Shown: positions 9,322 to 30,354 of the stretch, one piece after another
How the letters are laid out: every line of letters starts with the position of its first letter
Position numbering within the stretch: the first letter of the stretch is position 1
NCBI GenBank assembly: GCA_963717935.1
Contig: CAVQXP010000004.1
Span: forward strand, 1,088,001-1,152,000
Length of the DNA: 64,000 bases
DNA from: Candidatus Eiseniibacteriota bacterium
GTDB lineage: Bacteria > Eisenbacteria > RBG-16-71-46
Direction of reading: 5' to 3'
The notes under the pieces: generated by a model
What the model was told of the DNA's origin: nothing
The model's input: only the letters and a program-made list of their open reading frames with translations
Databases searched by the model: none
Position numbers and translations under genes: made by a program

Positions 9322-9446
9322 CGCGCGCCGGGGGGAATCGGCCGCCCGCCGCCCGTCCCCGGCCACTCCCGCCGTCCGTCCGTCTTCTAACCCCGCCCGC
9401 CGCAATCCCTTGACTTACCCGGCTCCGTGGCGTAGCGCTCAAGGGA

Positions 9447-11428: not shown

Positions 11429-11469
11429 CCCGGGCTAGCGGGCCGCGCGGCGGGGGTGAAGCGCCGCCG

Positions 11470-13503: not shown

Positions 13504-13890
13504 CTAGCCGGCGGAGACCTCGCGCGCCGGCCGCACGCACGCGTCGCGCACGGCTTCGCACAATTCCTCGGGGTCCACCGGGCGCGGGGCGAAGTAGATC
13601 GGGCGCAGCGGCTGGATCAGGCGCCGCACCTCGAGCGAGGCGTGGCTCGCCACGACGATGAGCGGGAAGTCGGGCGCGAGGCGGCGCAGCAGCCGCAGGG
13701 TGGCCAGGTCGTCGTCGCGCTCGGGGCAGAGGGCGAACAGCACGACCTGGTGCCGCCCGGAGGCGACGGCATCCACCAGCGACTCGGTCGTGGAGGCCGC
13801 GCAGACCGCGCAGCCACCGCTCGCGAGCACGTCGGCGAGCGGCGGTTCGCCGTTCGTCCCGGCCTCGAAGACGATCACGCTGGGCACCAT
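13504..13890 (-). CDS. Single-domain atypical receiver (REC-like) protein lacking the phosphoacceptor Asp
   Basis: REC secondary-structure pattern VIVFE...QVVLFALCP...PLIVVAS...YFAPRPVDPEEL; Ala at the Asp site, Arg at the Lys site. Confidence 0.75.
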   Translation of the reverse strand: MVPSVIVFEAGTNGEPPLADVLASGGCAVCAASTTESLVDAVASGRHQVVLFALCPERDDDLATLRLLRRLAPDFPLIVVASHASLEVRRLIQPLRPIYFAPRPVDPEELCEAVRDACVRPAREVSAG

Positions 13891-13904
13891 GTCACCGGAC
13901 TTCT

Positions 13905-13920
13905 AGCAATCCGGGTGCCT
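13905..13920 (-). promoter_or_regulatory. Sigma54 (-24/-12) promoter
   Basis: Minus strand AGGCACCCGGATTGCT: GG-N10-GC, close to the TGGCAC-N5-TTGCW consensus. Confidence 0.75.
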
Positions 13921-14040
13921 GAGCGCCGCCCGGTCGGGCGCGGCCGCCCGCCGGTCCGCAAAGTTCCGGAAAACCGTGCTCTGGCGAGGGTTTGGCGCGG
14001 GCCCGGCGCGCGGCTCCGGGGCGCCCGGGGACCGCCCGGC

Positions 14041-14075
14041 TGCCACGCTGTCAGGTCGCCGCCGCCAACTGACAG
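14041..14075. promoter_or_regulatory. Candidate enhancer (UAS) for the NtrC-type activator
   Basis: TGCCA-cgc-TGTCA (14041-14053) and inverted repeat CTGTCAG/CTGACAG (14048-14054/14069-14075), about 120-155 bp upstream of the sigma54 site. Confidence 0.55.
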
Positions 14076-14148
14076 ACCGGGGCGGACGACCGCGGGGTCG
14101 AAGGCTGGCCGGCCTGCGACCCCGAAGGTCCGCGCTCCCGGTCCCGGG

Positions 14149-15502
<1,354 letters not shown>

Positions 15503-15510
<8 letters not shown>

Positions 15511-16666
15511 CGCTGCCTCCCGGGCCCTGCACGGGCAGCTCGATGATGAACCGGGCGCCTGCGCCCGGGCGGCTCTCGACCCGGATGGCGCCGCCGTAGC
15601 CGGTCACCGTCCGCTGCGTGATCGAGAGACCGAGGCCCGTGCCCTGGCCGATCGGCTTGGTGGTGAAGAAGGGATCCCAGATGCGGTCGAGGTGCTGTGG
15701 CTGGATGCCGGGGCCGGTGTCCTCGATCTCGAGCGTCACGGTGGAGCCCGCGTGACGGGTACGCACCGTGAGCATCCCGCCCTCCTTCATGGCCTGCACC
15801 GCGTTCATGCACAGGTTCATGCACATGCCGCGGATGCCCGACTCGCGCGCCCAGATGTGCGGCACCTTCGGGTCCATGTCCTGCACCATGGCGATGCCCT
15901 GCTTGGCCATCTGGTAGTTGAGCAGCGAGAGCGTGTCGCGCGCCGCGCGGTTCAGGTCCACCCAGGCGGTCGCCGCGCGGTAGGGCTGCGCCAGCAGCAG
16001 CAGCTTCTCCGTGGTCTCGGTGCAGCGCTGGGTCTCGCGCTCGATGCCCTGCAGGACGCCGTCCATGTCCTCCCGGTTGCGCGCCGGGAGCTGCTGCTCG
16101 CGCATGAGCCAGCGGCGCAGCCGCTCGACCCCGGCGAGGATGGCGGCCATCGGGTTGTTCAACTCGTGCGCCACGCCGGCCGCGAGCGTGCCCAGCGAGG
16201 CGAGCCGCTCGCTGTGGGCGAGCTGCGCCTCGAGGTCGCTGCGCTCGCTGATGTCGCGCCAGACCTCGACCACGTGACTCACCTCGCCGTCGGGGCCGAG
16301 CACCGGGTTGTAGGTGGCCTCCCAGCGTCGCTGGGCGCCGCTCGGATCGGTCATGTTGCGCACCCGGCGGACCGGGCGCTTCAGCTCCATCACCTCGCAG
16401 GCCGAGCAACGGCTGGAGCCGGCGTTGGCCTCGGCGTCGGGACAGTGCAGCACGTCCATGCAGTGCGTGCCGATCACGGCGGCGCGCTGGGGCCCGAAGG
16501 CGTCCAGGTAGCGGCGGTTCGCGGCCACGACCTTCTGGGTGCGGTCCACCACGACCACCGCGTCGCTCAGTGCGTCGATGAGCTGGGGCAGGATGTGCCG
16601 GACCTGCTCGATGTCCATCCGGCCGGGGAAGGGGGCCGGGACGGACGCGGGATGTGGTTGCGCCAT
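15503..16666 (-). CDS. Cytoplasmic PAS-domain sensor histidine kinase
   Basis: PAS with Cys cluster; HELNNP H-box, N-box, DTGPGI, PFFTTK, GTGLGL; no TM helix; GAGGAG SD before ATG 16666. Confidence 0.93.
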
Positions 16667-16708
16667 GGACTCCTCGGGAAGAAGGACGACTGGCGCGGCC
16701 AGCGAGGA

Positions 16709-16721
16709 TGACAGTTTGTCA
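16709..16721. promoter_or_regulatory. Palindrome, candidate autoregulatory site of the kinase-regulator pair
   Basis: TGACA-gtt-TGTCA, same motif as at 14041-14053. Confidence 0.5.
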
Positions 16722-16857
16722 GGCACCGGGCCAAAAACACTAGCACAGGACCGGCAGGCGTGGCGAAAGAGGGGGTCGCTGGCCCCGGGCACCGGTCTTC
16801 CCCTACCATGCCCGGCGGTCCCACCGTTCGCCCGCCATCGAAGGCCGGAGTCCGCCG

Positions 16858-17103
16858 ATGAACGACGCCAAACTCAAGGATTGCTTCAGCCAGTCGCTCG
16901 GGATCCCGGTCGGCCGGGTCACGGATGATCTCGCCTACAACGCGATCAAGGAGTGGGATTCGGTCGGACACATGGCGCTGGTCGCCGCGCTTGAAGGCGC
17001 CTTCGACATCATGCTCGACACCGACGACATCCTGGGCCTGAGCAGCGTGGCCAGGGCCCGCGAGATCCTGGCGAAATACGGGGTGGTCTTCGATGCTGCT
17101 TGA
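16858..17103 (+). CDS. Acyl carrier protein
   Basis: 81 aa, acidic, EWDSVGHMALV phosphopantetheine motif. Confidence 0.92.
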   Translation: MNDAKLKDCFSQSLGIPVGRVTDDLAYNAIKEWDSVGHMALVAALEGAFDIMLDTDDILGLSSVARAREILAKYGVVFDAA

Positions 17104-17830
17104 AGGCAGGTCCGCGCTGGTCACGGGTGCGGGCCGGGGGATCGGCGCCGCCATCGCCGCGGCGCTGGCCGCCGAAGGTGCCCGGGTCGTGATCTCCGAC
17201 CTGAGCGAACAGGTCGAACCGGTCGCCGCGGAGCTCTGTGCGCGGGGGGGACGGGTCACGGCGCTGCGGGGTGACTTGCGCGACGAGGCGTTCCTGAAGG
17301 AGTTGGTCCAGGCGTGCCGCAGGCAGCACGGGAGCCTCGATGTGCTGGTCAACAACGCCGGCGTGCTGCGCCAGGGGTTGCTTGGGATGCTCCCGGCGAC
17401 GGCGATCCGGGAACTGTTCGAGGTGAACGTCATCGCGCTCATCGCGCTCACGCAGTACGCCGTGCGCATCATGGACGGGGCGCGCCAGCCCAGCATCATC
17501 AACCTAGCCTCGATCGCGGGCACCCGGGGCATGGAGGGCGTATCGGCCTATTCCGCCTCCAAGGGCGCGGTCGTGGCGTTCACGCTGGCGGGTGCGAAGG
17601 AGCTGGCGCCCCGGGGCATTCGCATGAACGCCATCGCGCCCGGGTTCATCGATACCGAGATGATCCGGGGGCTGGCCCCGGACTGGCTCGAGCGGCGCGT
17701 GGAGAGCATCCGCATGGGCCGCGTTGGCACCCCGGAGGACGTCGCCGGGGCGGCGGTGTTCCTGGCGTCCGGTCTGTCGAGTTACGTAACCGGGCAGGTG
17801 CTCGGTGTGGACGGGGGAATGCAGGGTTGA
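17093..17830 (+). CDS. SDR oxidoreductase (FabG-like)
   Basis: TGAGRGIG, NNAG, YSASK, APGFIDT, VTGQVLGVDGG. Confidence 0.93.
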   Translation: MLLEGRSALVTGAGRGIGAAIAAALAAEGARVVISDLSEQVEPVAAELCARGGRVTALRGDLRDEAFLKELVQACRRQHGSLDVLVNNAGVLRQGLLGMLPATAIRELFEVNVIALIALTQYAVRIMDGARQPSIINLASIAGTRGMEGVSAYSASKGAVVAFTLAGAKELAPRGIRMNAIAPGFIDTEMIRGLAPDWLERRVESIRMGRVGTPEDVAGAAVFLASGLSSYVTGQVLGVDGGMQG

Positions 17831-19236
17831 TCGATCTCCTCCGGCAACATCCTCGCCGGCAGGTCGCGCTGATCGAGCCGGTGAACGGGGGACGGGTCCG
17901 CTACGGCGAATTGCTGGAGCGCGTGGATGCCGCGGCCGAGGCGCTCGTCGCCGCGCTGGGCAGGCGCGGCCTCGCTTTCCTCGCCATGGGCCCCGACGTG
18001 GATGCCGTCGTGCTGTACCTCGGTTGTTTGGGCGCGCGCATCCCGTTCTGTCTCGCCGAGACCCAGCCGGAGCCCCTCGCGCGGCTCGCGCAGGTCTACG
18101 AGCCGGACCTCCTGCTGCTGCCGTTGTCGCTCGCGCCGCCGCCCGCCTACCGTGAACATCCGTCTCCGGTCGCTCGTTACCGCGTCTGGGTCGCCGAACG
18201 TCACGGGTCGCGCGCACTCCATCCGGACCTAGCGCTGCTGCTCACCACCTCGGGCTCGACCGGCAATCCCAAGCTCGTCCGGCTCACGCAGCGCAACCTC
18301 GAAGCGAACGCGCGCTCGATCGTGAAGTACCTCGGCATCGATCCCGGGGAGCGCGCGATCGAGAGCCTGGCGATGCACTATTCCTACGGGCTCTCGGTGC
18401 TTAACTCGCATCTCGTGGCCGGCGGCTCGGTCGTTCTCACCCCGCACTCGTTCCTGCGCCCGGAGTTCTGGACGGTGGTGGACGAGGAGCGCTGCACGTC
18501 GTTCGCCGGCGTGCCGTATATGTACGAGACGCTGCACCGTCTGCGCTTCGACCTGGCCCGGCACCCTGCGCTGCGCACGCTTACCCAGGCGGGCGGTGGG
18601 CTGCGCAAGGACCTCGTTGCCCATTTCCACGCGCTGGCCGCGGGGGCCGGGGCGCGCTTCTTCGTCATGTATGGGCAGACCGAGGCCACAGCGCGCATCT
18701 CCTATGTTCCGCCCGAGGCGCTGTCCGGAAAGATCGGTTCCATCGGCATCGCGATCCCGGACGGCCAACTGAGCCTGGCCGTGGTCGAGGATTCCGCCGA
18801 CCTGATGGAACTGGTCTATGAAGGTCCCAACGTCATGCTGGGGTACGCGGAGTCGCCTGCCGATCTCGCGCTGGGGGACGTCCAGGCCGGCGTGCTGCGG
18901 ACCGGGGACCTCGGCCGCGTGGACGAGGATGGCTTCTTCTCCGTCGCCGGCCGGCTCAAGCGCTTCGCCAAGCTGTTCGGCCGGCGCGTCAGCCTGGAGG
19001 ACATCGAACGCGAGATCGAGGCGGCATTCCCGGTGCGCGTGGCGGCGACCGACGGCGGCGACCGCATCGTGATCCACGCGGAACTGGAGGGCGCAGTCGG
19101 CCCGGAGGACATCGGCAGTCACGTCGCGAAGCAGCTTGGGGTACCGCCCGTGGCCGTGACCGTGACCGTCGTGAAGACCCTGCCGCGGACTTCCTCGGGC
19201 AAGAAGGACTATCGCGCGCTCGAGGTGCGCGGATGA
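17827..19236 (+). CDS. AMP-dependent acyl-CoA/acyl-ACP ligase
   Basis: LTTSGSTGNPK, YGQTEA, RTGDLG, LPRTSSGKKD; TTG start overlapping the SDR stop. Confidence 0.92.
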   Translation: MIDLLRQHPRRQVALIEPVNGGRVRYGELLERVDAAAEALVAALGRRGLAFLAMGPDVDAVVLYLGCLGARIPFCLAETQPEPLARLAQVYEPDLLLLPLSLAPPPAYREHPSPVARYRVWVAERHGSRALHPDLALLLTTSGSTGNPKLVRLTQRNLEANARSIVKYLGIDPGERAIESLAMHYSYGLSVLNSHLVAGGSVVLTPHSFLRPEFWTVVDEERCTSFAGVPYMYETLHRLRFDLARHPALRTLTQAGGGLRKDLVAHFHALAAGAGARFFVMYGQTEATARISYVPPEALSGKIGSIGIAIPDGQLSLAVVEDSADLMELVYEGPNVMLGYAESPADLALGDVQAGVLRTGDLGRVDEDGFFSVAGRLKRFAKLFGRRVSLEDIEREIEAAFPVRVAATDGGDRIVIHAELEGAVGPEDIGSHVAKQLGVPPVAVTVTVVKTLPRTSSGKKDYRALEVRG

Positions 19237-20327
19237 GGAGCCCCGCCCGGGACCTGCTGGAGTTGCCGCCCTACTCGTTGCCGCAGGACGAGAAGCGCGC
19301 GATGCTGCGGCCGCGTCTTGAGGCGCTCACGCGCCACCACTACGAGGCGTGCGCGGCGTACCGCAACGTCGTGGACCACGTGTTCGGCGGACTCGACACC
19401 GTGGACTTCGGTCGGCTCGAGGACCTGCCGTTCCTGCCGGTGTCGCTGTTCAAGACGCACGAGTTGAAGAGCGTCTCCGACGCCGACGTCATCAAGGTGC
19501 TCACCTCGAGCGGCACGACGGGCCAGCAGGCGAGCCGCGTGGTGGTGGACGCCGAGACGAGCCAGGTCCAGTCGGCCGTCCTGGTCAAGGTGGCGCAGCA
19601 CTTCCTCGGTCGGGAGCGCCTGCCGATGGTGATCCTCGACCATGCCGGGGTCGTGAAGGACCGCCGCTCGTACTCGGCCCGTGCGGCGGGCATCTTGGGT
19701 ATGGCCCAGTTCGGCTACCGGCCGTTCTACGCTCTGCGGGAGGACATGAGCCTCGACGCGGAGGGGCTCGTCGCGTACCTGGGCTCGATGAGGGATCGGC
19801 GGATCCTGTTGTTCGGTTTCACCTGGATGGTGTGGCAGCATTTCGCCGGAGCGCTCGAGAGTCTCGGGCTGCGCCCTGACCTGTCGCGCGGCGTCCTCGT
19901 TCACTCGGGTGGGTGGAAGAAGCTGCACGACGTCGCCGTGACCCCTGCGGAGTTTCGCGAGCGCCTGCGGGTGCTGACCGGGCTCCCCCGGGTGATCGAT
20001 TTCTACGGCATGGTCGAGCAGGTGGGGAGCGTGTATTTCGAAAACGAGCTTCACCTCTTGCAGGCCCCCATCTACTCCGACGTGATCGTGCGCGACCCGG
20101 TGACGCTCGAGCCGCTGCCCGATGGCCGGCCGGGTCTCCTGCAAGTCGTGAGTTGCCTGCCCACGAGTTACCCCGGGCACTCGCTTCTTACCGAGGACCT
20201 GGGCGTGATCCGCGGCGCGGACCTGCCGGGCACGGAGTTGAAGGGCCGCAGTTTCGAGGTGCTCGGGCGTGTCCCGCGTGCCGACTTGCGCGGGTGCAGC
20301 GACACGTTCGAACCGAGGGCCGCGTGA
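19233..20327 (+). CDS. LuxE-family acyl-protein synthetase
   Basis: LPFLPVSLFK, TSSGTTG, HSGGWKK, DFYGMVEQ, SYPGHSLLTEDLG and C-terminal RGC acylation Cys. Confidence 0.92.
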   Translation: MRSPARDLLELPPYSLPQDEKRAMLRPRLEALTRHHYEACAAYRNVVDHVFGGLDTVDFGRLEDLPFLPVSLFKTHELKSVSDADVIKVLTSSGTTGQQASRVVVDAETSQVQSAVLVKVAQHFLGRERLPMVILDHAGVVKDRRSYSARAAGILGMAQFGYRPFYALREDMSLDAEGLVAYLGSMRDRRILLFGFTWMVWQHFAGALESLGLRPDLSRGVLVHSGGWKKLHDVAVTPAEFRERLRVLTGLPRVIDFYGMVEQVGSVYFENELHLLQAPIYSDVIVRDPVTLEPLPDGRPGLLQVVSCLPTSYPGHSLLTEDLGVIRGADLPGTELKGRSFEVLGRVPRADLRGCSDTFEPRAA

Positions 20328-21597
20328 GCGGATCCGAACGGACCCGACCGCGCCGCTGGGTCGACCTCGGTGCTGCGGTGACGGTGCTCGCGCCCGACTC
20401 GCCCGGCCAGGACCTCGCCGGCTTCCTCGACGCGACCCTGGCCGCAGGCGGCGAGTCGTTCACCGCGGAGCGTCGCGAGGTCATCCACTCGCTCTCGGCT
20501 GCCTTTCTTGCCGACCCCGTCCTGCGTCGGGATGCGGCGAGCGTCGCGGCGGCCTACTGGATGCGGCGCGCCCAGGTCGAGCGGCTCGCGTCCGAATTCG
20601 AGCGCCGGGTGCAGGCGGAGCCTGCCGTGGTGCGCGTACCGGTGGGGCGCGTGTTCCACCTGGCGCCCGCCAACGTGGATACGCTGTTCATCTACTCCTG
20701 GGTGCTCGCCTTCCTGTGCGGCAACGCCAGCGTCGTACGATTGTCGCAGGACCGCACGCCTGTGGTTGAGGCGATGCTGGACGCGATCCGGGTGGTGGCT
20801 CGCGAGCACGCTGTGCTGGGCTCGGGCGACCGCTTCGTCACCTACGAGCACGACGCGGCGGCCACCGAGGCGATCTCGGCCTGGTGCAGCCACCGGGTGA
20901 TCTGGGAGGTGACGAGACGGTTGCCGCCCTACGCCCGCTGGCGCTCAATCCGCACGCCAGCGAGCGCGTGTTCGGGAACAAGTTCTCGTATGCGGTCTTC
21001 TCGGCGGCCCGGTACCTCGCGGCCAGCGCGGATGAGCGCGCGCGGGTCGCGGGCGGGTTCTTCAACGACCTCTTCTGGTTCGACCAGATGGCGTGCTCGT
21101 CACCCCATGTGCTCTTCTGGGTGGGGAGCGAAGCCGAGACGGATCCTGCCATCGGGGCGTTCGAGGCGGACCTGCAGGGCGAGGCGGACCGGCGTGGCTT
21201 CGTGCCCTCGGCCGCGAGCGCGGTGCAGCGCCGGGCCTTCGCCTTCGAGCTTGCCGCCGACGCGGACGTGCGAGTCGGTCTCGGGCATCCCAGCTTCGTG
21301 GGCATCCGCGTCCTGGAGGCGAGCGGCCTCACCCGGGAGACCTGCGGCGGTGGACTTCTGCGTCACTACCGGCTCGACCGGCTCCAGGATCTGGCCGGCT
21401 TCGCGGAGGAGGGCGACCAGACCGTGACCCACTTCGGCTTCAACGCAGACGAACTGCGGGACCTCGCCACCCGCGCCGGGGCACGCGGTCTGGACCGCGT
21501 CGTGCCGGTGGGCGAGGCCCTCGCGTTCGATGTCGTGTGGGATGGCTATGACCTGCTCGACGACTTCACGCGCCGTGTGCGGGCAAAGTCCTCCTGA
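20324..21597 (+). CDS. LuxC-family acyl-CoA reductase (one apparent frameshift near 20905)
   Basis: VFHLAPANVD and GNASVVRLS; VIW|GGDETV restored by adding one G to a G-run; catalytic FDQMACSSP; DRVVPVG...WDG. Confidence 0.88.
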
Positions 21598-21619
21598 GCC
21601 CGCGGACCGCGACCCCGCC

Positions 21620-22489
21620 ATGACGATCCGACTCGATTCCCCGCTCCAGGCCACGGCGAAGGCGCTCCCTGAGATCGCGCGTCTGCTCGAGCGCGCGATC
21701 CCGCGCGGGCGCCCGTGGGCCCCCGACGTTGAATGGCACTACCTGCGGAACCCGGCGGGCGCCGCCTGGTACGTGAACGCGCGCTCGGACCAGGGCGAGC
21801 TGATGGCCCACTTCGCGGTCATCCCCGTTCCGGCGCTGGACGATCCACGTTTTGACTCCCTGCGCGTGTTCCTCTCGCTGAACACCGCCGTGCATCCCGG
21901 CGCCACCGTGCCGGGTCTCATGGTGGCCACGGCGCGGGCTCTGTTCCGGCATCTGGAATCACTCCATCCCGCGCTCGTCCTCGGCGTGGCGAATGAGAAT
22001 TCCTTCGTCGGTTTCAGCCGCCTGCTCGGCTTCCTGCCGCTGGGGCGCCTCCGACTGCGCTTCTTCCCGCCCTTTGTGCTCCCGCGGGACGAGCCGCCCC
22101 GCGCCCTCCGGTGGGACGAGGCCGTGCTCCGCTGGCGCGTGACGCGCCCGCAGGCCGAGGTGTTCGCGCAGCCGTCGCGGGGCGCGGTGCTCCGTCGCAT
22201 CCACCACCGTGGGTTGCCGCTCGACGTCGTCCTCACGGTCGGTCTGCCCGCGGAAACGCTGGCCCGGCTAGCGTTGCCCAACGGCCCCCGCTCCCTCCTC
22301 CGCTCGGCACCGCGCCTCTACGCGGGCTTCGGCCCGTCGTCCCCCGGGGGGATGCCGGTGCCGGAGGGCTTGCGTCCGAGTCCGCTCGAGTACATCTTCC
22401 GCCCCCTCGCGTCCGAGATCGATCGTAACGGGCTCGGCGCCTTCCTCGCGTCGCGCCGTTTCGAGTTCCTCGACTTTGACGTCGTGTAA
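21620..22489 (+). CDS. Putative GNAT-fold acyltransferase
   Basis: W.Y..NPAG, AHFAVIP, LSLNTAVHP and GVANENS...F...GF pattern, plus a second LRWR-containing half. Confidence 0.7.
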   Translation: MTIRLDSPLQATAKALPEIARLLERAIPRGRPWAPDVEWHYLRNPAGAAWYVNARSDQGELMAHFAVIPVPALDDPRFDSLRVFLSLNTAVHPGATVPGLMVATARALFRHLESLHPALVLGVANENSFVGFSRLLGFLPLGRLRLRFFPPFVLPRDEPPRALRWDEAVLRWRVTRPQAEVFAQPSRGAVLRRIHHRGLPLDVVLTVGLPAETLARLALPNGPRSLLRSAPRLYAGFGPSSPGGMPVPEGLRPSPLEYIFRPLASEIDRNGLGAFLASRRFEFLDFDVV

Positions 22490-22510
22490 CCCATCCCGGG
22501 GATCCGGATC

Positions 22511-23326
22511 GTGATCAACGCACTGACCATCGACTTCGAGGACTGGTATCAGGGGCTCGAGATCCCGATCTCGGAGTGGGACCGCTTCGAGGACCGCCTG
22601 GTCTTCTCCGGACGGCTGCTGCTCGATCGCCTTGCCGCGGCGCAGGTGCGCGGCACCTTCTTCGTCCTCGGGGCGGTCGCGGAACGGCACCCCGAGCTGG
22701 TGCGGGAGATCGCGGCGCAGGGCCACGAGGTCGCGACCCACGGCTGGTCCCACACGCTCGTCTACCAGCTGAGTCCCGAGGCTTTCCGCACGGAGTTGCG
22801 GCGCTCGGTGCAGCTCCTCGAGGAGCTCTCGGGCCGGAAGGTCCTCGGCCACCGCGCACCGTTCTTCTCGATCACGCGCGCGTCGCTCTGGGCGCTCGAC
22901 GTGCTCGGCGGGGAGGGCATCCGGTACGATTCGAGCATCTTCCCGGTGCTGAACTACCGCTACGGGATCGAGGACGCGCCGCGCTGGCCGTACGAGGTCC
23001 GGGGCGATTCCTGGACCCTGACCGAGTTCCCCGTCACCACCTGGAGGGCACTGGGACGCAACATCCCGGTCGCCGGGGGTGCCTACTTCCGGCTCTATCC
23101 CTACGCGCTGACGCGTGCCGCCCTGCGCAGCATCAACCGGGCGGGGCACCCGGCCCTGTTCTACCTCCATCCGTGGGAACTCGACCCGGACCATCCCCGC
23201 ATCCGCCTGCCGCGCCGGATCGCGCTTACGCACTACGCGAACCTGAAGGCCACCGAGCGACGCTTCGTCCGGCTCCTGCGCGATTTCCGCTTCGCCCCGC
23301 TGAGAGAGGTGCTGGGAGTCCCGTGA
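22511..23326 (+). CDS. Polysaccharide deacetylase with DUF3473
   Basis: NALTIDFEDW, TFFVLG, HEVATHGWSH, RAPFFSI, YDSSIFP, GGAYFRLYPY, YLHPWELDP. Confidence 0.92.
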   Translation: MINALTIDFEDWYQGLEIPISEWDRFEDRLVFSGRLLLDRLAAAQVRGTFFVLGAVAERHPELVREIAAQGHEVATHGWSHTLVYQLSPEAFRTELRRSVQLLEELSGRKVLGHRAPFFSITRASLWALDVLGGEGIRYDSSIFPVLNYRYGIEDAPRWPYEVRGDSWTLTEFPVTTWRALGRNIPVAGGAYFRLYPYALTRAALRSINRAGHPALFYLHPWELDPDHPRIRLPRRIALTHYANLKATERRFVRLLRDFRFAPLREVLGVP

Positions 23327-23452: not shown

Positions 23453-24406
23453 ATGCGCCGTGTGCTCGTCACGGGGGTGACCGGCTTTGCCGGCAGCCAC
23501 CTCGTGGACTATATGCTCACCCGGAACGACTGCGAGATCTTCGGCATCCAGCGCTGGCGGAGCCCGCTCGAGAACATCGAGCACTTCAAGGAGAAGATCA
23601 CGCTGGTCGAGTGCGACCTGCGGGATGCCTCCTCGACGCGCGACACCCTCGAGCGGATGCGTCCGGACTGGATCTTCCACCTGGCCGCGCAGTCCTTCGT
23701 GCCCACTTCGTGGAGCGCGCCGACCGAGTCACTCACCACCAATGTGCTCGGCCAGCTCAACATCTTCGAGGCGGTGAGGCGCATCGGCCTGGAATGCCGC
23801 ATCCAGATCGCCTGCTCCAGCGAGGAGTACGGCATGGTCTACGCGGACGAGTTGCCGATCAAGGAGACGAACCCGCTGCGGCCGCTCTCGCCCTACGCGG
23901 TCAGCAAGGTGGCGCAGGACCTGCTCGCCTACCAGTACTGGATGTCGTGGAAGGTGGACTCGGTGCGCACCCGCGGTTTCAACCACGAGGGTCCGCGGCG
24001 GGGGCCGGTGTTCGTGGCCTCGGACTTCGCCAAGCAGATCGCCGACATCGAGAAGGGCCTCAAGCCACCGGTGCTCCACGTCGGGAACCTCGAGGCCAAG
24101 CGCGACTTCACCGACGTGCGCGACATGGTGCGTGGCTACTGGCTGGCGCTCGAGAAGTGCGAGCCCGGCGAGGTCTACAACCTCTGCAGTGGCAAGGCGT
24201 ACAGCATCCAGCAGGTACTGGACCTGCTGCTCGGCATGACGAAGGTGAAGATCGAGGTGCGCCAGGACCGCCTGCGGCTGCGTCCGAGCGACGTGCCCGT
24301 GCTGCTGGGCGACCGCTCGAAGTTCACGAAGGCCACCGGCTGGGAGCCGGTGATCCCGTTCGAGCAGACGCTGCAGGACATGCTCGACTTCTGGCGCGCG
24401 CGGTAG
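23453..24406 (+). CDS. gmd: GDP-mannose 4,6-dehydratase family protein
   Basis: TGVTGFAGSHL, HLAAQSFV, SSEEYG, PYAVSK, FNHEGPRRG, GNLEAKRD. Confidence 0.8.
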   Translation: MRRVLVTGVTGFAGSHLVDYMLTRNDCEIFGIQRWRSPLENIEHFKEKITLVECDLRDASSTRDTLERMRPDWIFHLAAQSFVPTSWSAPTESLTTNVLGQLNIFEAVRRIGLECRIQIACSSEEYGMVYADELPIKETNPLRPLSPYAVSKVAQDLLAYQYWMSWKVDSVRTRGFNHEGPRRGPVFVASDFAKQIADIEKGLKPPVLHVGNLEAKRDFTDVRDMVRGYWLALEKCEPGEVYNLCSGKAYSIQQVLDLLLGMTKVKIEVRQDRLRLRPSDVPVLLGDRSKFTKATGWEPVIPFEQTLQDMLDFWRAR

Positions 24407-24417
24407 CGGGCTGTCTC

Positions 24418-25389
24418 ATGCCGGGCCGGACCGTCCTCGTCACGGGCGTGAGTGGCTTCGTCGGTCCCCACCTGGCGCGCGCTCTGGTCGCCTCGGGAGC
24501 GCGCGTCGTGGGGCTCGGCATCGAGCCGGAGCCGCCCGCCGGGATCCCGCTCGAGGGCTGGCATGTCGCCGACCTGCGCGAGCCGGTGGCGGTCGGTCGC
24601 GCGGTCGCCGCGGCGCGGCCCGACGCCGTGGTGCACCTCGCGGGGCAGAGCAGCCCGGCACGTTCCTTCGAGGACCCCGCCGGCACGTTCGAGGCGAATG
24701 TGAGCGGCGCGCGCAACCTGCTCGAGGCGGCGCGCGGCGGCGCGCCGGTGGCACGCCTGCTGATCGTCGGGAGCGGCGACGTCTACGGCCCGCAGCCCGA
24801 GGGCTCGCGCGCGGGGGAGGAGACGCCCTTCGCGCCCGTGAGTCCGTACGCCGCCTCGAAGGTCGAGGCCGACCGGCTGGCCGAGGTCGCCGCGCAGGGC
24901 GAGTACGGTCTCGACGTCGTCCGCGTGCGCGCGTTCAGCCACACCGGCCCCGGCCAGAGCCCGGCGTTCGTCGTGCCCGGCTTCGCCCAGCAGATCGCCG
25001 CCATCGAGGCGGGGCGGACGGAGCCCGTGCTGCGCGTCGGGAACCTCGAGGTGATGCGCGACTTCTCCGACGTGCGCGACGTGGTGCGGGCCTACGTCGC
25101 GCTGCTGGAGCACGGCACGCGTGGCGCTGCCTACAACGTCTGCCGGGGCGAGGGCGTGAAGCTCACCGAGGTCGTGAGCCGCCTCGTGGGGCTGGCGCGC
25201 GTGGCGATCCGGGTCGAGGTGGACCCCGCGCGCCTGCGGCCGGCGGACATCCCCTGGCTGGTGGGCGACCCGTCGCGCATCGCGCGGGACACCGGGTGGC
25301 GCGTCAAGCTCCCCCTCGAGCGGACACTCCGCGACGTGCTGGAGGAGTGGCGCGGGAGGGACCGCGGCCGGATGGCCCCGCAGGCTTGA
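24418..25389 (+). CDS. rmd: GDP-4-keto-6-deoxy-D-mannose reductase (Rmd-like) extended SDR
   Basis: TGVSGFVG, HLAGQS, PYAASK, FSHTGPGQS, VGNLEVMRDFSDVRDVV; tandem with gmd. Confidence 0.65.
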   Translation: MPGRTVLVTGVSGFVGPHLARALVASGARVVGLGIEPEPPAGIPLEGWHVADLREPVAVGRAVAAARPDAVVHLAGQSSPARSFEDPAGTFEANVSGARNLLEAARGGAPVARLLIVGSGDVYGPQPEGSRAGEETPFAPVSPYAASKVEADRLAEVAAQGEYGLDVVRVRAFSHTGPGQSPAFVVPGFAQQIAAIEAGRTEPVLRVGNLEVMRDFSDVRDVVRAYVALLEHGTRGAAYNVCRGEGVKLTEVVSRLVGLARVAIRVEVDPARLRPADIPWLVGDPSRIARDTGWRVKLPLERTLRDVLEEWRGRDRGRMAPQA

Positions 25390-25414
25390 CCCGGCCCACG
25401 GGCGGGCCTACCTT
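25386..25414 (+). promoter_or_regulatory. Sigma70-type promoter upstream of the wzz-like gene
   Basis: TTGACC-17 nt-TACCTT. Confidence 0.55.
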
Positions 25415-25429
25415 GTGCAACTCATTCCG

Positions 25430-26503
25430 ATGATGCCCACGATGAAACCCAGCCCGCTCGATTCCCTGCCCCCGCCCGCGCGCCGCTTTGTCGCTGCCTC
25501 CTTGGAGCGGCGGCGGCCGATTGCGGCGTTCGTTCTGGCGGTCATGGCGCTCTCCGTGGCGGTGGCGCTGCTGCTGCCGCCCTGGTTCCAGGCACAGTCC
25601 ACGGTGCTGCCGCCCACCGAAGGGAACGATTCCTTCGGCATCATGGCAGGGCTGATCCAGGGCGCTGCGCTCAGCAAGATCGGGATGATGACGACCTCGA
25701 CGGCCTCGGAGATCTACACGGAGATTCTCAGGAGCCGGACCCTCCAGGAGGATCTGGTCCAAGTGTTCCACCTCGACCAGCTCTACAAGCGGAAAGGGAT
25801 GGACCTCACCCTGAAGGAGTTGGCCCGCCACGTGAATGTGGCGATCGGCAACTCGGGCCTGCTCATCGTGCAGGTGGAGGACCGGGACCCGCGGCGCGCG
25901 GCGGACATGGCGAACCGGCTGGTGGACGAACTCGACCGATTCAACCGGGAGGCACTCAACACGCGGGCCAAGCGCACGCGGGAGTTCCTCGAGTCGCGGG
26001 TCGCTGACGTCCAGACGCGCCTGCGAGCGGCGGAAACGGCGCTCACGGCGTATGAGCAGAAACACGGTGTCACCGCCGACGCGTCCGCCGTGGGTGGCAT
26101 GGCCGCCATCATCGCCCAGAAGCTCAACCTGCAGGTGAAACGCGAGTACGTCTCCAGCTACACCTCCTCCGGGAGTGCCGCGGTCCGCTCCATCGACACC
26201 GAGATTGCCGCCTATGATCGCGAGTTGGCCCGCCTGCCGGGACTCAAGAGCGAAGGCGCACGGCTGGCGCTCGACGCGGAGATCCAGCGCCGGGTTTTCA
26301 CCGTGCTGACCGGCCAGTACGAGGATGCCCGGGTTCAGGAGATGCGGGACACGCCGACGATCACGGTCCTCGACCGGGCACGCCCTCCCGAGTTGAAGGT
26401 GCGGCCGAAGCGCGCGGTGATTGTCCTTATCTCGACCCTGGTCGCGTTGCTGCTCTCGGTGGGTTGGGTGGGGTTGTCGCTTCGCAAGGCTGCGCCCGCA
26501 TGA
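25430..26503 (+). CDS. Polysaccharide co-polymerase / chain-length determinant (Wzz/GumC-like, no kinase domain)
   Basis: N- and C-terminal TM helices, EILRSRT, coiled coil, VLDRARPP...PKR; start approximate. Confidence 0.88.
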   Translation: MMPTMKPSPLDSLPPPARRFVAASLERRRPIAAFVLAVMALSVAVALLLPPWFQAQSTVLPPTEGNDSFGIMAGLIQGAALSKIGMMTTSTASEIYTEILRSRTLQEDLVQVFHLDQLYKRKGMDLTLKELARHVNVAIGNSGLLIVQVEDRDPRRAADMANRLVDELDRFNREALNTRAKRTREFLESRVADVQTRLRAAETALTAYEQKHGVTADASAVGGMAAIIAQKLNLQVKREYVSSYTSSGSAAVRSIDTEIAAYDRELARLPGLKSEGARLALDAEIQRRVFTVLTGQYEDARVQEMRDTPTITVLDRARPPELKVRPKRAVIVLISTLVALLLSVGWVGLSLRKAAPA

Positions 26504-26597
26504 CTCCGGCCCGCGCCTCTTCCGCGCGGGACTCCTTGGCCATCACAGGGGACCGGGCTTCCGTGATTCCCGGATCCCGCTGGACCGGACCCGCGTG

Positions 26598-28052
26598 ATG
26601 AATCAGATGGCGGCTCCGCTCACTCGTCCCGTCCCGATCGGCTCCCTGCTCCTGGCAGCGGCCGCCGGAGCGTTTGCCATTACCGTGGGTCTGGCGACGG
26701 GCGACCCGGGCTCGGGGATGCTGCTGCCGGTGGGTGCCGTCCTCGGACTGATGGTCGTGGGTGTCGTCGTGGTCCGGCCATTCTGGGGCTTCCTCGCGCT
26801 GGTGTTCTCGTCATTCTTCCTCATGGTTGTGCCCGTGGCCGGGACGCACCGTGGTGTCAACGTCTTCGACCTCGTCCTGATCCCGTTGGTCGCGGCGTCC
26901 CTGCTCGGCGGTGCCCGGCGGGACGCCGCGACCGGGGACGTTTCCCTGGCCGGGCCGACCCACGAGGCCGTGCGGAAAGCCACCCGCCGCTTTGGGAACA
27001 GCGCCATGCTCTACTTCGGCCTGGCCGCGCTCTCCCTGTTGCCGATGGTGATCCGCCTCGGGCCCGGTCCGGCGTTCACCTCGGGGCTCTCGCTCGTGCG
27101 GGTGGTGCAGGGCGCGCTGGTCTTTCCGCTCGCGTTATGGTGGCTGCGAGACGAGCGACGGATTGGGGCGACGCTGCGCACCGTGTTTGTGGCGGCCGTC
27201 GTCTTCGCGCTGGTGAACTGTGTCTGGATGTTCGCTCTCGGAGTCCCCCGGGCCGGAATCGTCTGGTGGGTGACCGATGTGCGCGAGGCCGTCGGCAGCC
27301 CCAACGAGGCGGCGGCCGCCCTGCTGGTGCTGTGGGCCCTGGTTCAGGCGCGTTGGGCCGTCCAGCCAAGCCGGTGGCTCGTCCTGCTCATGGGTCTCGT
27401 GCTCGTGATGCTACCGCTCACCCAGTCGCGCAGCGGACTGCTCGCCTTCGCCACGTTCCTGCTCCTCACCGTGCGGCGCGTGCGCTGGCGCTGGCTCCTG
27501 GGGGGTGGGGTGGCGCTCCTCGTGGCGCTCCCGCTCGTGCCGGCGGAGTACTGGGGCCGTCTCGAAAGGTCCCTGATGTTCAAGCAGGGCTCGTTCGAGG
27601 TCTTCACGTTCCTGGCCCGGATCTACGGCTATCGCGTGGCCTGGCACGTCTTCCTCGACAACCCGGTGATTGGCGTGGGGTATCTCGGTTTTCGCTTCGT
27701 GAGCGCGAGCTACAACGATCTTCACCTCTCCATCGGCCAGGTCGAGAATTTCCTGTTGGAGACCCTGGTGGGCATGGGAGTCTCGGGACTGGCCGTCGTA
27801 GGCTTCGCGTTCGCGCGTCTGCACGCACTGGGCCGGGTGGTGCAGCAGGTTACAGCTCCGAGGACTCTCGGGCACGAACTGGCGCGTCTCCAGGCTCCTT
27901 TGCTGGTCGCGCTGTTCGTGGCCAACCTCACGGGGGCCACCTTCGTCGGCATGGTGGGGGTGGGACAGTTCGCGCTCTGGTGCGCGCTGCTGGTCCGGGC
28001 AGGGCACCTCGCGCAGGAACGGGCGCTCCCGGCAGGGTGCCCCGGGGCGTGA
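26598..28052 (+). CDS. O-antigen ligase/polymerase family membrane protein (Wzy_C)
   Basis: Multi-TM protein with TQSRSGLLA, R.Y.Y..AW..F.DNPVIGVGY and ENFLLETLVGMG. Confidence 0.85.
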   Translation: MNQMAAPLTRPVPIGSLLLAAAAGAFAITVGLATGDPGSGMLLPVGAVLGLMVVGVVVVRPFWGFLALVFSSFFLMVVPVAGTHRGVNVFDLVLIPLVAASLLGGARRDAATGDVSLAGPTHEAVRKATRRFGNSAMLYFGLAALSLLPMVIRLGPGPAFTSGLSLVRVVQGALVFPLALWWLRDERRIGATLRTVFVAAVVFALVNCVWMFALGVPRAGIVWWVTDVREAVGSPNEAAAALLVLWALVQARWAVQPSRWLVLLMGLVLVMLPLTQSRSGLLAFATFLLLTVRRVRWRWLLGGGVALLVALPLVPAEYWGRLERSLMFKQGSFEVFTFLARIYGYRVAWHVFLDNPVIGVGYLGFRFVSASYNDLHLSIGQVENFLLETLVGMGVSGLAVVGFAFARLHALGRVVQQVTAPRTLGHELARLQAPLLVALFVANLTGATFVGMVGVGQFALWCALLVRAGHLAQERALPAGCPGA

Positions 28053-28110
28053 CCTCCGCGCTTTCTCACCAGGCCGGTGCCGCGCGCGCGCGACCGAACG
28101 CGGCGGGGCC

Positions 28111-29289
28111 ATGAGCGCCGTCCGACCGCTGCGCATCCTCAACGTCATCACCCGGATGATCGTGGGCGGCGCCCAGGAGACCGTCCTGCTCGCCTGCGCG
28201 CTCGTGGACCGCGAGCGCTTCAGCTGCGAGATCCTGACCGGGCCCCAGACCGGCTCCGAGAGCGAGCTGCACGGCGAGACGCGGGCACGCGGCATCCCGC
28301 TCCACGTGGAGCCTGCGATGCTGCGGGAGTTGCACGCGCTCCAGGACCCACTGGCGCTGATGCGCGTGGCGCGCTTCATCCGCCGCGGTGGCTACGACAT
28401 CGTCCACACGCACACCGCCAAGGCCGGCGTGCTGGGTCGCATCGCGGCGCGCATGGCGGGTGTGCCGGTCGTGGTGCACACGGTGCACGGCTGGGAGTTC
28501 CAGGCCGCCGAGCACGGCCGGCTCTCGCGACTCTACCTGGAGCTCGAGCGCTGGCTGGCGGCCTGGAGCCAGGCCCTGGTGGTGGTGGCCGACTTCGACC
28601 GGCGCGAGGGGCTCGAGGCCGGCGTCGGGCGCCCGGGCCAGTACGCGCTGATCCGCTCGGGGATCGAGGTCGAGGAGTTCCGCGACGTGACGCTGACCCG
28701 CGCGGAAGCGCGCTCCCGGGTGGGCGTGCCCGCCGATGCCTTCGTCGTGGGTCAGGTCGGGAGGCTCACGCGGCAGAAGGCGCCGCTGGACCTGCTGGGG
28801 GCGTTCGAGCCGCTGGCGCGAGCGCGAGCCGAGGCGCGGCTCGTCTTCCTCGGGGATGGCCCTCTGCGCCCGGCGCTGGAAGCGGCGGCCCGGCGCGTGG
28901 GTCTGGAGGAGCGTGTCCACATCCTCGGCATGCGACGCGACGTGCCCCAGGTGCTGCGCGCCTTCGACGTGCTCGCGCTCGCGTCGCGCTGGGAGGGTCT
29001 CCCGCGCGTCCTGCCGCAGGCCATGGCGGCGGGCTTGCCGATCGTGGCGACCCGCGTGGCCGGCGCTCCCGAGGCGGTCGCTGACGGGGAGAACGGCTGG
29101 CTGGTTGCACCGGGGGACCTGGACGCCTTCGCCAAGCGGTTGATCCAGCTTGCGGGTGATCCCGACCTGGCCCGCCGCATGGGCGAGGCCGGCCGCGCGA
29201 GGGTGGACGAGTTCTCGGCGGCTCGGATGGCACTCCAGCTCGAGTTGCTCTACCTGGGGCTGGCCCGCGGGGCTGGGATCCCGGCATGA
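28111..29289 (+). CDS. Glycosyltransferase family 4
   Basis: GGAQE, DIVHTHTAKAG, GRLTRQK, SRWEGLPRVLPQAMAAG. Confidence 0.93.
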   Translation: MSAVRPLRILNVITRMIVGGAQETVLLACALVDRERFSCEILTGPQTGSESELHGETRARGIPLHVEPAMLRELHALQDPLALMRVARFIRRGGYDIVHTHTAKAGVLGRIAARMAGVPVVVHTVHGWEFQAAEHGRLSRLYLELERWLAAWSQALVVVADFDRREGLEAGVGRPGQYALIRSGIEVEEFRDVTLTRAEARSRVGVPADAFVVGQVGRLTRQKAPLDLLGAFEPLARARAEARLVFLGDGPLRPALEAAARRVGLEERVHILGMRRDVPQVLRAFDVLALASRWEGLPRVLPQAMAAGLPIVATRVAGAPEAVADGENGWLVAPGDLDAFAKRLIQLAGDPDLARRMGEAGRARVDEFSAARMALQLELLYLGLARGAGIPA

Positions 29290-29391
29290 GGCCGGCACCG
29301 CGGCCGTTGTGCCCCGCGGGGTGCATCGCTCCGGGGACGACCGGCGCGCCGGCGCGCTTCTCCGGTGCCGACGTGACCGGGGGCTGACGCG

Positions 29392-30354
29392 ATGCCACTC
29401 CTCGCTCCGGACGAGCTGCTGCCACTCCTGCGCTGCCCGCGGTGCCACGGCCCGCTTACGCGCCGCGCCGAAGGGCTCGCCTGCGGTTCGCTGACCTGTG
29501 GCCTCGTCGGCCGGGTCTTCCCGCAGGTGGCCGGCCAGCACGCGCCAGTGGACTTCGAGCGCAGCGTGGTCGCCGAGGCGGAGTTGCGCGCGCGCGCCGG
29601 TGCGAGCCTCGTGCCGCGCCGCTCCGATCGCGGCGTCGTCGGGGCACTGCGGCGGCTGTCGGCGCCACCGAGCCGTGTGGCCGAGCGGCACATGCACGAC
29701 CTCGTGGCGCGCCTGCGCGCCGGCGGCGGGCGGCCTCGCGTGCTGGTGGTCGGCGGTGGCAGGCGCAATCCCGGCTCCGAGCCGCTCTACGAGGACCCGG
29801 GACTCGACCTGATCGCATTCGACATCTACGCCTCGCCCGAGACCCAGTTCATCGGCGACGTCCACGGCCTGCCGCTCGCCGACGGCAGCGTTCAGGCGGT
29901 CTCGGTGCAGGCGGTGCTGGAGCACGTGCTCGACCCGTGGCGCGCCGTGAGCGAGATCGAGCGCGTGCTCGCCCCGGACGGGCTGGTCTACGCGGTCACG
30001 CCGTTCCTCCAGCACGTGCACGAGGGGCCGTGGGATTTCACTCGCTTCACCGAGAGCGGGCACCGCTGGCTGTTCCGCAACTTCGAGCGGCTCGACTCGG
30101 GAGTGGTGGCGGGGCCGGCCACCGCGTGGGTGTGGTCCACCGAGCAACTGGTGCGCGGGCTCACCCGTTCCGTCGCCGTGGGGAAGGCCGCGCGCATCGC
30201 GCTGTCGTGGGTACACCTGCTCGACCGCCTGATCCCCGAGCCCCACGCGGTGGATGGCGCGTCGTGCCTGTACTTCTACGGCCGCAAGAGCGACGTGCCA
30301 CTCGACCCGGCGGGCGCGATTCGCGAGTACCGGGGAGCGCAGCAGCCCGCGTAA
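29392..30354 (+). CDS. Class I SAM methyltransferase with N-terminal Trm112-like Cys knuckle
   Basis: LRCPRC...C..LTC; VLVVGGG, GDVHGLP, AVLEHV, HEGPWDFTRFT. Confidence 0.85.
   Translation: MPLLAPDELLPLLRCPRCHGPLTRRAEGLACGSLTCGLVGRVFPQVAGQHAPVDFERSVVAEAELRARAGASLVPRRSDRGVVGALRRLSAPPSRVAERHMHDLVARLRAGGGRPRVLVVGGGRRNPGSEPLYEDPGLDLIAFDIYASPETQFIGDVHGLPLADGSVQAVSVQAVLEHVLDPWRAVSEIERVLAPDGLVYAVTPFLQHVHEGPWDFTRFTESGHRWLFRNFERLDSGVVAGPATAWVWSTEQLVRGLTRSVAVGKAARIALSWVHLLDRLIPEPHAVDGASCLYFYGRKSDVPLDPAGAIREYRGAQQPA

Follow-up and report, generated by a model that had tools for sequence, protein, structure and literature searches.

What reaction might be carried out by a polysaccharide deacetylase of the DUF3473 type and by the LuxC/LuxE genes that stand, devoid of luciferase, at the head of a bacterial glycan locus? 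To our knowledge, both the DUF3473/TIGR03006 deacetylases and the luciferase-less cassette made of an acyl carrier protein (ACP), a FabG-like reductase, a ligase, LuxE and LuxC are common in glycan loci, and neither has an assigned reaction. The two occur together, along with an acyltransferase of the tandem-GNAT type, between positions 16858 and 23326 of a stretch of 64,000 nucleotides (nt) from a Candidatus Eiseniibacteriota bacterium (assembly GCA_963717935.1, contig CAVQXP010000004.1, positions 1,088,001 to 1,152,000), the whole of which is hereafter designated as the window. We propose, with a confidence evenly balanced between right and wrong, that these genes would form, within a surface-polysaccharide locus of the Wzx/Wzy type, a cassette for N-acyl tailoring in the cytoplasm, which would take the acetyl group off an amino sugar and put a custom-made acyl group on it.

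The G+C content of the window (69-76% by scan) generates many spurious open reading frames (ORFs), and the real frames were picked by means of their third-position G+C. The window ORFs with a coding signal were each compared with Pfam, NCBIfam or both, and the cassette genes are as follows (aa, amino acids).

16858..17103, + strand: stand-alone ACP, 81 aa; Pfam PP-binding, 26 bits (cutoff 20.8), E 1.1e-5.
17093..17830, + strand: FabG-like short-chain dehydrogenase/reductase (SDR), 245 aa; adh_short_C2, 217 bits; TGAGRGIG and YSASK motifs.
17827..19236, + strand: AMP-forming ligase, 469 aa from a TTG that overlaps the SDR stop; AMP-binding, 132.5 bits.
19233..20327, + strand: LuxE-like acyl-protein synthetase, 364 aa; Pfam LuxE (PF04443), 164.5 bits (cutoff 24.9).
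20324..20905, + strand: LuxC-like acyl reductase, N-terminal part, GTG start; positions 86-195 of the LuxC profile, 22.8 bits.
20905..21597, + strand: LuxC-like acyl reductase, C-terminal part, shifted into the adjacent frame; positions 177-401 of the LuxC profile, 34.4 bits; FDQMACSSP motif.
21620..22489, + strand: tandem-GNAT acyltransferase, 289 aa; identified with an AlphaFold2 model and Foldseek; C-terminal RRFEFxDFD motif.
22511..23326, + strand: CE4/DUF3473 polysaccharide deacetylase, 271 aa; TIGR03006, 314.9 bits; DUF3473, 152 bits; Polysacc_deac_1, 75 bits.

The family scans and the reading of the junctions bear out the seven genes, their order and their spacing as they had been given in a preliminary description of this DNA. 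The ACP and SDR genes overlap by 11 nt, the next three junctions read TTGA, ATGA and GTGA, and gaps of 22 nt and 21 nt separate the LuxC stop (21597) from the GNAT ATG (21620) and the GNAT stop (22489) from the deacetylase GTG (22511), respectively. A sigma-70 scan returned no promoter-like site (0), no terminator-like site occurs in the gaps between the cassette genes, and all the module proteins are devoid of hydrophobic segments. The scans of the window ORFs (Pfam and/or NCBIfam) revealed no luciferase, LuxD or DegT-type aminotransferase family, so that the absence of luxA, luxB, luxD and of an aminotransferase, as described earlier, holds for all ORFs scanned. The arrangement of a bacterial lux operon, with luxA/luxB and luxD beside luxC/luxE, was accordingly not found among them, and the description of the cassette as a luciferase-less LuxC/LuxE acyl module heading a glycan locus is confirmed.

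The identities of the proteins can be specified further. The ACP carries its attachment serine in an EWDS motif that is invariant in 12 of 12 aligned orthologues, and the SDR reaches 238 bits with the FabG models, under their equivalog cutoff of 296. The top NCBIfam model of the AMP-forming ligase, the presumed ACP loader, is TIGR03098 (exosortase-A-associated ligase; 162 bits versus a cutoff of 592), and, among solved structures, it comes closest to feruloyl-, oxalate- and malonyl-CoA ligases (CoA, coenzyme A; E 5e-24 to 5e-21). The match of the LuxE-like protein spans positions 22-386 of the 391 positions of the PF04443 profile, and its residues 13-357 align with residues 27-366 of the Photobacterium LuxE chain 7xc6_E (E 1.5e-17). 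In this structure-chain alignment the C-terminal RGCS falls on the KGCS of 7xc6_E, which shows that the RGC cysteine is intact, as previously stated; we take this cysteine to be the acylation site. The same protein fails the equivalog model of the luciferase-system LuxE (NF052244), with 81.1 bits for a cutoff of 550.

The association of these genes is more than a chance encounter, because it recurs in related genomes. Species-representative genomes scanned once with the GNAT-family profile yielded 17 loci, onto which the window proteins were mapped by tblastn. The LuxE-LuxC-GNAT run was found in 14 of the 17 loci, and the series deacetylase-ACP-SDR-ligase-LuxE-LuxC-GNAT was found on one strand in 12 loci from Gemmatimonadales/Gemmatimonadota (L001-L011 and L015, the cassette matches being fragmentary in L011 and L015). 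The deacetylase stands first in the cassette of these relatives and last in that of the window, and in L001 the start of the GNAT gene (10001-10858) overlaps the LuxC stop (8721-10004). The short contigs L013 and L014 display (ligase-)LuxE-LuxC-GNAT and end before the place that the deacetylase occupies in the others.

A de-N-acetylase lies within the cassette or adjoins the GNAT in 15 of the 17 loci, the other two being the short contigs, which are cut earlier. It is worth noting that the three loci without the acyl module within 10 kb keep a de-N-acetylase beside the GNAT. These are Geothrix terrae (L012), with WecB (UDP-GlcNAc 2-epimerase), the GNAT, a TIGR03006-like deacetylase (230 bits) and a glycosyltransferase; a member of the Solirubrobacteraceae (L017), with a PpgS-like GT2, DUF2304, GtrA, the deacetylase, the GNAT and an SDR; and Hellea (L016), where a PIG-L de-N-acetylase is immediately upstream of a GNAT homologue (31% identity). 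In addition, P0387, a cluster representative of 567 aa, is a fusion of PIG-L (residues 18-138) with a tandem GNAT (residues 287-565; E 4e-25 with the family profile), which is 31% identical to the window GNAT (E 9e-22), in an alignment that starts at residue 8 and extends as far as the C-terminal motif. As the GNAT thus pairs with de-N-acetylases of two unrelated folds, both as neighbour and as fusion partner, the deacetylase and the GNAT may well act on one and the same substrate, and this pairing is the strongest of the sequence-based arguments for a shared substrate. Collectively, the 15 of 17 loci, the PIG-L neighbour in Hellea and the P0387 fusion back the functional coupling of deacetylase and GNAT that the preliminary description had suggested, and the linkage of the two genes is conserved in these 15 loci, three of which belong to further phyla.

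What kind of protein is this GNAT? Its AlphaFold2 model (pLDDT 91.2, pTM 0.89) has as top Foldseek matches in the PDB MAB_4324 (7q3a), the Kribbella GNAT 4my3, Eis and N-myristoyltransferase, with scores against tandem GNATs of E ~3e-8, probability 1.0 and TM 0.54-0.56. Furthermore, Acetyltransf_9 is matched by 14 of 31 members of the family at E<=1 (best E 4.5e-6). Because a confident model best matches tandem GNATs, and because these 14 members match Acetyltransf_9, the earlier label "GNAT-like" holds true as regards the fold. Neither Pfam nor NCBIfam contains a model dedicated to this family. A word-indexed search detected 384 relatives at E<=1e-3, nearly all of 284-290 aa and with the C-terminal RRFEFxDFD invariant, the closest ones (84-89% identity) lying on short metagenome contigs. 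The 31-member profile detected 2121 clusters at 50% identity with E<=1e-3, 691 with E<=1e-10 and 41 with E<=1e-30. The same profile gave only chance-level matches to PDB chains (best E 0.012), and NCBIfam matched nothing consistent among the 31 members, with no exosortase-associated acyltransferase model and with none of the 31 matching the FemAB-related model TIGR03019 at E<=1. A tblastn search of plasmids with the GNAT returned one weak match. The motif-A loop reads x(V/I)PGLM in 6 of 6 aligned module-linked proteins, and is of a (Q/R)G type ending in F (QGKGIF, RGGGVF, RGQKLF, QGRGLF) in 3 of 3 module-less proteins of known context and in the PIG-L fusion. The altered CoA-binding loop of the module-linked GNATs may be a hint of an ACP-borne donor.

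With 314.9 bits for a cutoff of 276.2, the deacetylase qualifies as a member of TIGR03006, the "XrtA system polysaccharide deacetylase" (352.6 bits for the L001 orthologue), and it retains the HGWSH and RAPFF motifs. It exhibits no signal peptide or membrane segment (maximum Kyte-Doolittle value over 19 residues, 1.10) and appears to be cytoplasmic. Since the deacetylase has no signal peptide and the module proteins have no hydrophobic segments, the chemistry is predicted to take place in the cytoplasm, on a sugar linked to a nucleotide or to polyprenyl phosphate. With the NodB model TIGR04243 the deacetylase reaches 52.4 bits (E 4.5e-14), below the equivalog cutoff of 240, and the part shared is the CE4 homology domain only. 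No exosortase model matched the window ORFs scanned with NCBIfam, some ORFs and fragments having been scanned with Pfam only, and the XrtA partner models TIGR02915, TIGR03007, TIGR03088, TIGR03027 and TIGR03098 all remain below their cutoffs. Judged from these profile scores, the window is not an XrtA/PEP-CTERM system within the 64 kb seen. A literature search, from which subscription journals were mostly absent, retrieved no paper on DUF3473.

From what was observed, namely the identity of the domains, a synteny that is conserved and a GNAT-deacetylase link that does not depend on the module, we infer the chemical steps, their order, the acid, the acceptor and the use of the ACP as donor in the following way. 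The AMP-forming ligase would load a small carboxylic acid, probably dicarboxylic, oxo or hydroxy, onto the dedicated ACP. The LuxE-like enzyme would convert a carboxyl into an acyl-AMP and then into an enzyme thioester, the LuxC-like enzyme would turn this thioester into an aldehyde, and the FabG-like SDR would reduce a carbonyl to a hydroxyl, the product being a hydroxy-acyl-S-ACP. The DUF3473/CE4 deacetylase would take the N-acetyl group off an N-acetylhexosamine (HexNAc) still linked to a nucleotide or to polyprenyl phosphate, on the cytoplasmic face, and the tandem GNAT would then move the custom acyl group to the freed amine. A dicarboxylic acid attached through one of its carboxyls, with the other being reduced, would employ all five enzymes, in parallel with the tetronate model of cholera. 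Concerning the acceptor, the context points to a HexNAc, owing to the WecA-like gene in the window, WecB in Geothrix, the PpgS-like synthase in L017 and the lack of an aminotransferase in the scanned ORFs.

Several points weigh against this proposal. GNATs normally use CoA thioesters, and, because three of the 17 loci have no ACP module within 10 kb, the use of an ACP is not intrinsic to the GNAT family. The loop difference is suggestive only, since the module-linked sequences form a single clade and the comparison is confounded by relatedness. The GNAT ORF itself matches neither Pfam, even at E<=10, nor NCBIfam, and in this respect its earlier label does not stand. The P0387 fusion, the only one and detected by the profile search, could have arisen if gene calling merged two genes lying side by side, and the word-indexed search, in itself weak evidence, found no GNAT relative longer than 506 aa. 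As for the acid, the presence of oxalate- and malonyl-CoA ligases among the nearest solved relatives of the ligase is a weak and vague hint that would fit a dicarboxylic acid, and sequence does not tell whether LuxE and LuxC act on an acid in its free form or on the distal carboxyl once the acid is tethered to the ACP. More generally, the chemistry of all the cassette proteins is predicted from sequence alone and, finally, the LuxC-like gene is frame-broken in the window.

This last point raises the question of whether the module is alive. The one-base break occurs at 20903-20908, in a short G run, between the W and the GG of HRVIWGGDE, and places the start codon and the DQMACS cysteine in different frames. 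The preliminary description had given this cysteine as intact; the FDQMACSSP motif is indeed present, and invariant in 13 of 13 aligned sequences (the window and 12 relatives), but the break had been overlooked. A phmmer comparison of the C-terminal part with the PDB found nothing related, and the cysteine of the motif is a candidate active-site residue. Past position 195 of the LuxC profile, the frame that starts at GTG 20324 becomes Arg/Ser/Pro-rich nonsense up to a stop at 21427, and the coding signal switches frame near 20900-20930. The window copy hence has no uninterrupted LuxC frame, and its two halves each exceed the PF05893 cutoff of 21 (22.8 and 34.4 bits). All 12 aligned LuxC relatives are uninterrupted through the position of the break. 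The L001 orthologue (8721-10004; LuxC, 89.7 bits, profile 86-400) is intact, and so are the seven closest full-length relatives (P0124-P0130; 423-424 aa, PF05893), which are 81-89% identical over the C-terminal part. The break is most likely an assembly indel rather than the mark of a true pseudogene, because the window contains other genes that are split alike. At least two further genes are frame-broken, and two more seem fragmentary. A Wzy_C gene is broken near 51003 (profile 3-92 in ORF 50582-52111(-) and 94-149 in ORF 50569-51003(-)), and an NAD-dependent epimerase gene near 52650-52715 (profile 1-131 in 52228-52902(+) and 152-207 in 52706-53242(+)); both of these well-defined breaks sit at short G/C runs. 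The GT4 gene at 49145-50569(-) shows only fragmentary matches, and an MGDG-synthase-like gene at 58659-59600 is devoid of its N-terminal part. Programmed frameshifting was set aside, as no slippery heptamer was seen by inspection, a formal test not having been made. If the break were real, the module would be disabled in this copy and would be a dead remnant in this genome. That the break stands in the sequence as given speaks for this explanation, which we nevertheless regard as improbable, given that both LuxC halves retain a strong coding signal and conserved motifs, that the seven closest relatives are intact, and that at least two other genes are broken alike, at a density that fits assembly indels on a 2.1-Mb contig.

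Other explanations accept a working module and assign it a different role. The deacetylase and the GNAT might act independently of each other, the former leaving free amines on a partly cationic polymer, as in poly-N-acetylglucosamine (PNAG) or Pel, while the module and the GNAT acylate another nucleophile, for instance a hydroxyl, or an amine generated by genes outside the locus. CE4 enzymes that solely deacetylate are indeed common, and, since the deacetylase gene follows the GNAT gene in the window and precedes the ACP gene in the 12 relatives, that is, at different ends of the cassette, it is not bound to the GNAT there by immediate adjacency. This independent action is unlikely in our view, because in three further phyla the GNAT family occurs beside, or fused to, de-N-acetylases whose two folds are unrelated, because the deacetylase appears to be cytoplasmic, unlike the enzymes of PNAG and Pel, and because the scanned window ORFs include no aminotransferase. 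A distinct proposal concerns the acid: the ligase could load an amino acid, as in the case of DltA/DltC, in which case the substituent would be aminoacyl or hydroxy-aminoacyl and LuxE/LuxC would reduce a side-chain carboxyl. The ligase does match the adenylation-domain model TIGR01733 (126.9 bits) and, in the PDB, D-alanine carrier-protein ligases and beta-aminoacyl-ACP synthetases (E 1e-12 to 1e-11), and a FemAB-related protein adjoins the deacetylase in canonical PEP-CTERM loci, according to the accessible part of the source (PMC3684757). As these scores are far under any family cutoff and acyl- and dicarboxylate-CoA ligases match better in the PDB, we grant this proposal a slim chance. An equally slim chance is left to a module that would produce a fatty aldehyde or alcohol, or the lipid tail of a "liposugar", instead of a short hydroxy-acyl amide. 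It is true that LuxC and LuxE use long-chain acids in luminous bacteria. Furthermore, in the accessible text of two surveys, the same five genes were assigned to fatty-acid synthesis, with the suggestion of a lipid component (PMC7874193, PMC4875605). A lipid product is, however, difficult to reconcile with a cassette that comprises no ketosynthase, dehydratase or enoyl reductase for chain building, with a LuxE equivalog score far under its cutoff, and with a ligase whose nearest solved relatives use small acids.

Going back to the tailoring cassette, in which deacetylase and GNAT would exchange one acyl group for another, we tentatively advance a wider generalization, which we consider possible though somewhat doubtful. 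A de-N-acetylase (CE4/DUF3473 or PIG-L, adjacent or fused) and this tandem GNAT, whose family comprises hundreds of sequence clusters in several phyla, may constitute a widespread and hitherto unrecognised "N-acyl swap" pair that edits amino sugars, of which the GNAT would have switched, in Gemmatimonadota, from a CoA-borne donor to a dedicated ACP. This ACP would be fed by the ligase/LuxE/LuxC/SDR line, and the custom hydroxy-acyl group would be put on the exopolysaccharide. If true, the N-acyl swap would for the first time assign a function to DUF3473/TIGR03006, and it would suggest that the deacetylase/FemAB pair of PEP-CTERM loci, which has long lacked an explanation, works likewise, with an aminoacyl donor. 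The link of the GNAT to de-N-acetylases of two unrelated folds turns the combination of a deacetylase and a LuxCE cassette into a concrete testable scheme, which predicts that the exopolysaccharides of soil Gemmatimonadota contain amino sugars with unusual N-acyl groups. Three elements appear to be new: the tandem-GNAT family, the systematic way in which it is paired with de-N-acetylases, and its recruitment of an acyl-ACP line in Gemmatimonadota.

The neighbourhoods of the related loci offer further observations. A TylF-like O-methyltransferase (TylF, 52 bits; Methyltransf_24, 37 bits) lies between LuxC and the GNAT in L010 (9308-9988), and an ORF at the same place in L014 (1973-2728) resembles it by translation; a methyltransferase at this position would be consistent with an acyl or sugar substrate that bears a hydroxyl. 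Genes for the synthesis of 3'-phosphoadenosine 5'-phosphosulfate (PAPS), namely CysN/C, CysQ, CysC and CysD, flank the cassette of Gemmatimonadales relatives (L001:253-4227 and 11000-19913; L004:14017-20609). Three sulfotransferases, together with a sulfate ABC transporter and a porin O/P, accompany these genes in L001, and a Wzc-like tyrosine kinase does so in L004. The polysaccharide of these relatives is probably sulfated, as judged from their gene content, and none of these flanking genes of L001 and L004 is in the window. In L017 (823-12000), the deacetylase-GNAT pair comes after the PpgS-like polyprenyl-phospho-HexNAc synthase, DUF2304 and GtrA, a trio known from the galactosamine pathway of mycobacterial arabinogalactan, and a fatty acyl reductase and a wax-ester synthase are upstream of the pair.

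In the window, the cassette is flanked by the following genes.

23462..30354, + strand: continuation of the glycan locus; two NAD-dependent sugar epimerases/dehydratases, a Wzz-like protein, a Wzy_C polymerase/ligase-like protein, a GT4 glycosyltransferase and a methyltransferase.
14149..16792, - strand: divergent PAS histidine kinase and sigma-54-dependent response regulator; identified by family scans.

The divergent kinase and response regulator are possible regulators of the locus. The PEP-CTERM-box regulator model TIGR02915 is matched there with 389.6 bits, below the cutoff of 502.6. A scan for sigma-54 promoters found 16 matches in the window, for 17.7 expected by chance, and none in 16618-16858 upstream of the ACP. 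The top sigma-54-like site (13905-13920 (-), AGGCACCCGGATTGCT, one mismatch) is just upstream of a receiver-domain gene, 13504-13890(-), which adjoins the sigma-54 activator gene. The glycan region (16858-52700) looks like two loci: a + strand block at 16.8-42 kb, with Wzz, Wzy_C, an MOP flippase, an export protein and a WcaJ-type initiating transferase, and a - strand block at 42-52 kb, with its own flippase, Wzy_C gene, glycosyltransferases, methyltransferase and GDP-fucose-synthase-like gene, after which comes the WecA-like Glycos_transf_4 gene (53274-54290). Between 11479 and 13259 (-), the coding-like composition switches frame four times, and the ORFs tried there have no Pfam match. The methyltransferases at 29392-30354 and 60863-61669 have weak matches to the DVU_1556 family, far under the cutoffs, and the LuxE-like protein (19233-20327) has a weak match to the AMP-ligase model of the DVU_1553 family, far under its cutoff as well; these matches may echo another uncharacterised gene set.

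How does the cassette compare with known systems? Its five-gene core is not new, being a known, uncharacterised cassette. In the accessible text of two surveys of flagellin glycosylation islands, one on 98 Aeromonas strains and the other on approximately 70-80 strains of Enterobacteriaceae, these islands comprise an ACP, a 3-oxoacyl-ACP reductase, an AMP-dependent synthetase, luxE and luxC, taken as "fatty acid synthesis" genes (PMC7874193, PMC4875605). The window thus resembles the islands of Aeromonas group II and Enterobacteriaceae, so far as these sources describe them, by the five gene types in the same sequence (orf1, orf2, orf3, luxE, luxC), by the glycan locus and by the lack of luciferase. 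It differs from them in what follows luxC, a GT2 glycosyltransferase (Fgi-1) in the islands, whose target is the flagellin glycan in the same partial descriptions, and the tandem GNAT and DUF3473 deacetylase in the window, where the locus is of the exopolysaccharide or O-antigen type, the likeness being one of gene type and order. By its gene types, their order and the glycan context, the window belongs to this five-gene cassette. A tblastn search of plasmids with the LuxE-like protein returned 36 records, including a glycan locus on a plasmid of Deinococcus sp. NW-56 (L018), where ACP-SDR-AMP-LuxE-LuxC, in the same order, come after glycosyltransferases and a sugar transferase and are followed by a PglD_N and hexapeptide N-acyltransferase; plasmids of Ponticoccus and Rhizobium carry looser versions of the set. 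These data draw the picture of the five-gene core as a portable acyl-building line, which would be combined with a variable terminal transferase. Our literature search, in which subscription journals were mostly not included, found no paper linking the LuxC/LuxE cassette to a deacetylase/GNAT pair.

The principle of deacetylation followed by re-acylation is not novel either, because it already operates in the synthesis of Nod factor, lipid A and teicoplanin. In NodB/NodA/NodF-NodE, in LpxC/LpxD and in the teicoplanin deacetylase and acyltransferase, a cytoplasmic de-N-acetylase frees the amine of GlcNAc, which an acyltransferase re-acylates. The acyl donor of the Nod and Lpx systems is ACP-borne, and NodB, like the window deacetylase, is a CE4 enzyme. 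The preliminary description, in which such a route was not recognised as described, is therefore not upheld as to the principle, the logic of Nod and Lpx being identical and the five-gene module being already present in glycan loci. Unlike these two systems, the cassette has a tandem GNAT in place of NodA or LpxD, and its acyl group would come from the ligase/LuxE/LuxC/SDR line rather than from a ketosynthase or the housekeeping fatty-acid synthase.

The Rfb genes of Vibrio cholerae O1, as reportedly described by Morona et al. in 1995, encode a LuxC/LuxE-like reductase, a dehydrogenase and a transferase that N-acylates an amino sugar. In this organism, the amine of perosamine is provided by an aminotransferase, not by deacetylation, and both the dehydrogenase and the transferase come from other families. 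The partial text of one source says that RfbL has the role of activating 2,4-dihydroxybutanoic acid and of attaching it to CoA or to the carrier RfbK, and RfbK-RfbO (WbeK-O) resemble the window cassette, by this description, in associating a carrier protein with a ligase for a short hydroxy acid (PMC12208996).

The solved tandem GNATs of the MAB_4324, Eis, N-myristoyltransferase and MshD types possess two GNAT-like halves per chain, as does the model of the window protein, which differs from them by its low identity (8-15%) and moderate TM-score, and of which the module-linked clade is devoid of the usual (Q/R)GxG loop. Lastly, canonical PEP-CTERM/XrtA loci display, in the accessible part of the source, the order UDP-GlcNAc 2-epimerase, deacetylase, FemAB-related protein and glycosyltransferase (PMC3684757). 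The window deacetylase, which lies above the TIGR03006 cutoff, resembles the deacetylase of the TIGR03006 and TIGR03019 pair, whereas its GNAT partner belongs to a family that does not match TIGR03019. In Geothrix, the order of the locus mirrors the canonical PEP-CTERM one, with the GNAT occupying the position of the FemAB-related protein.

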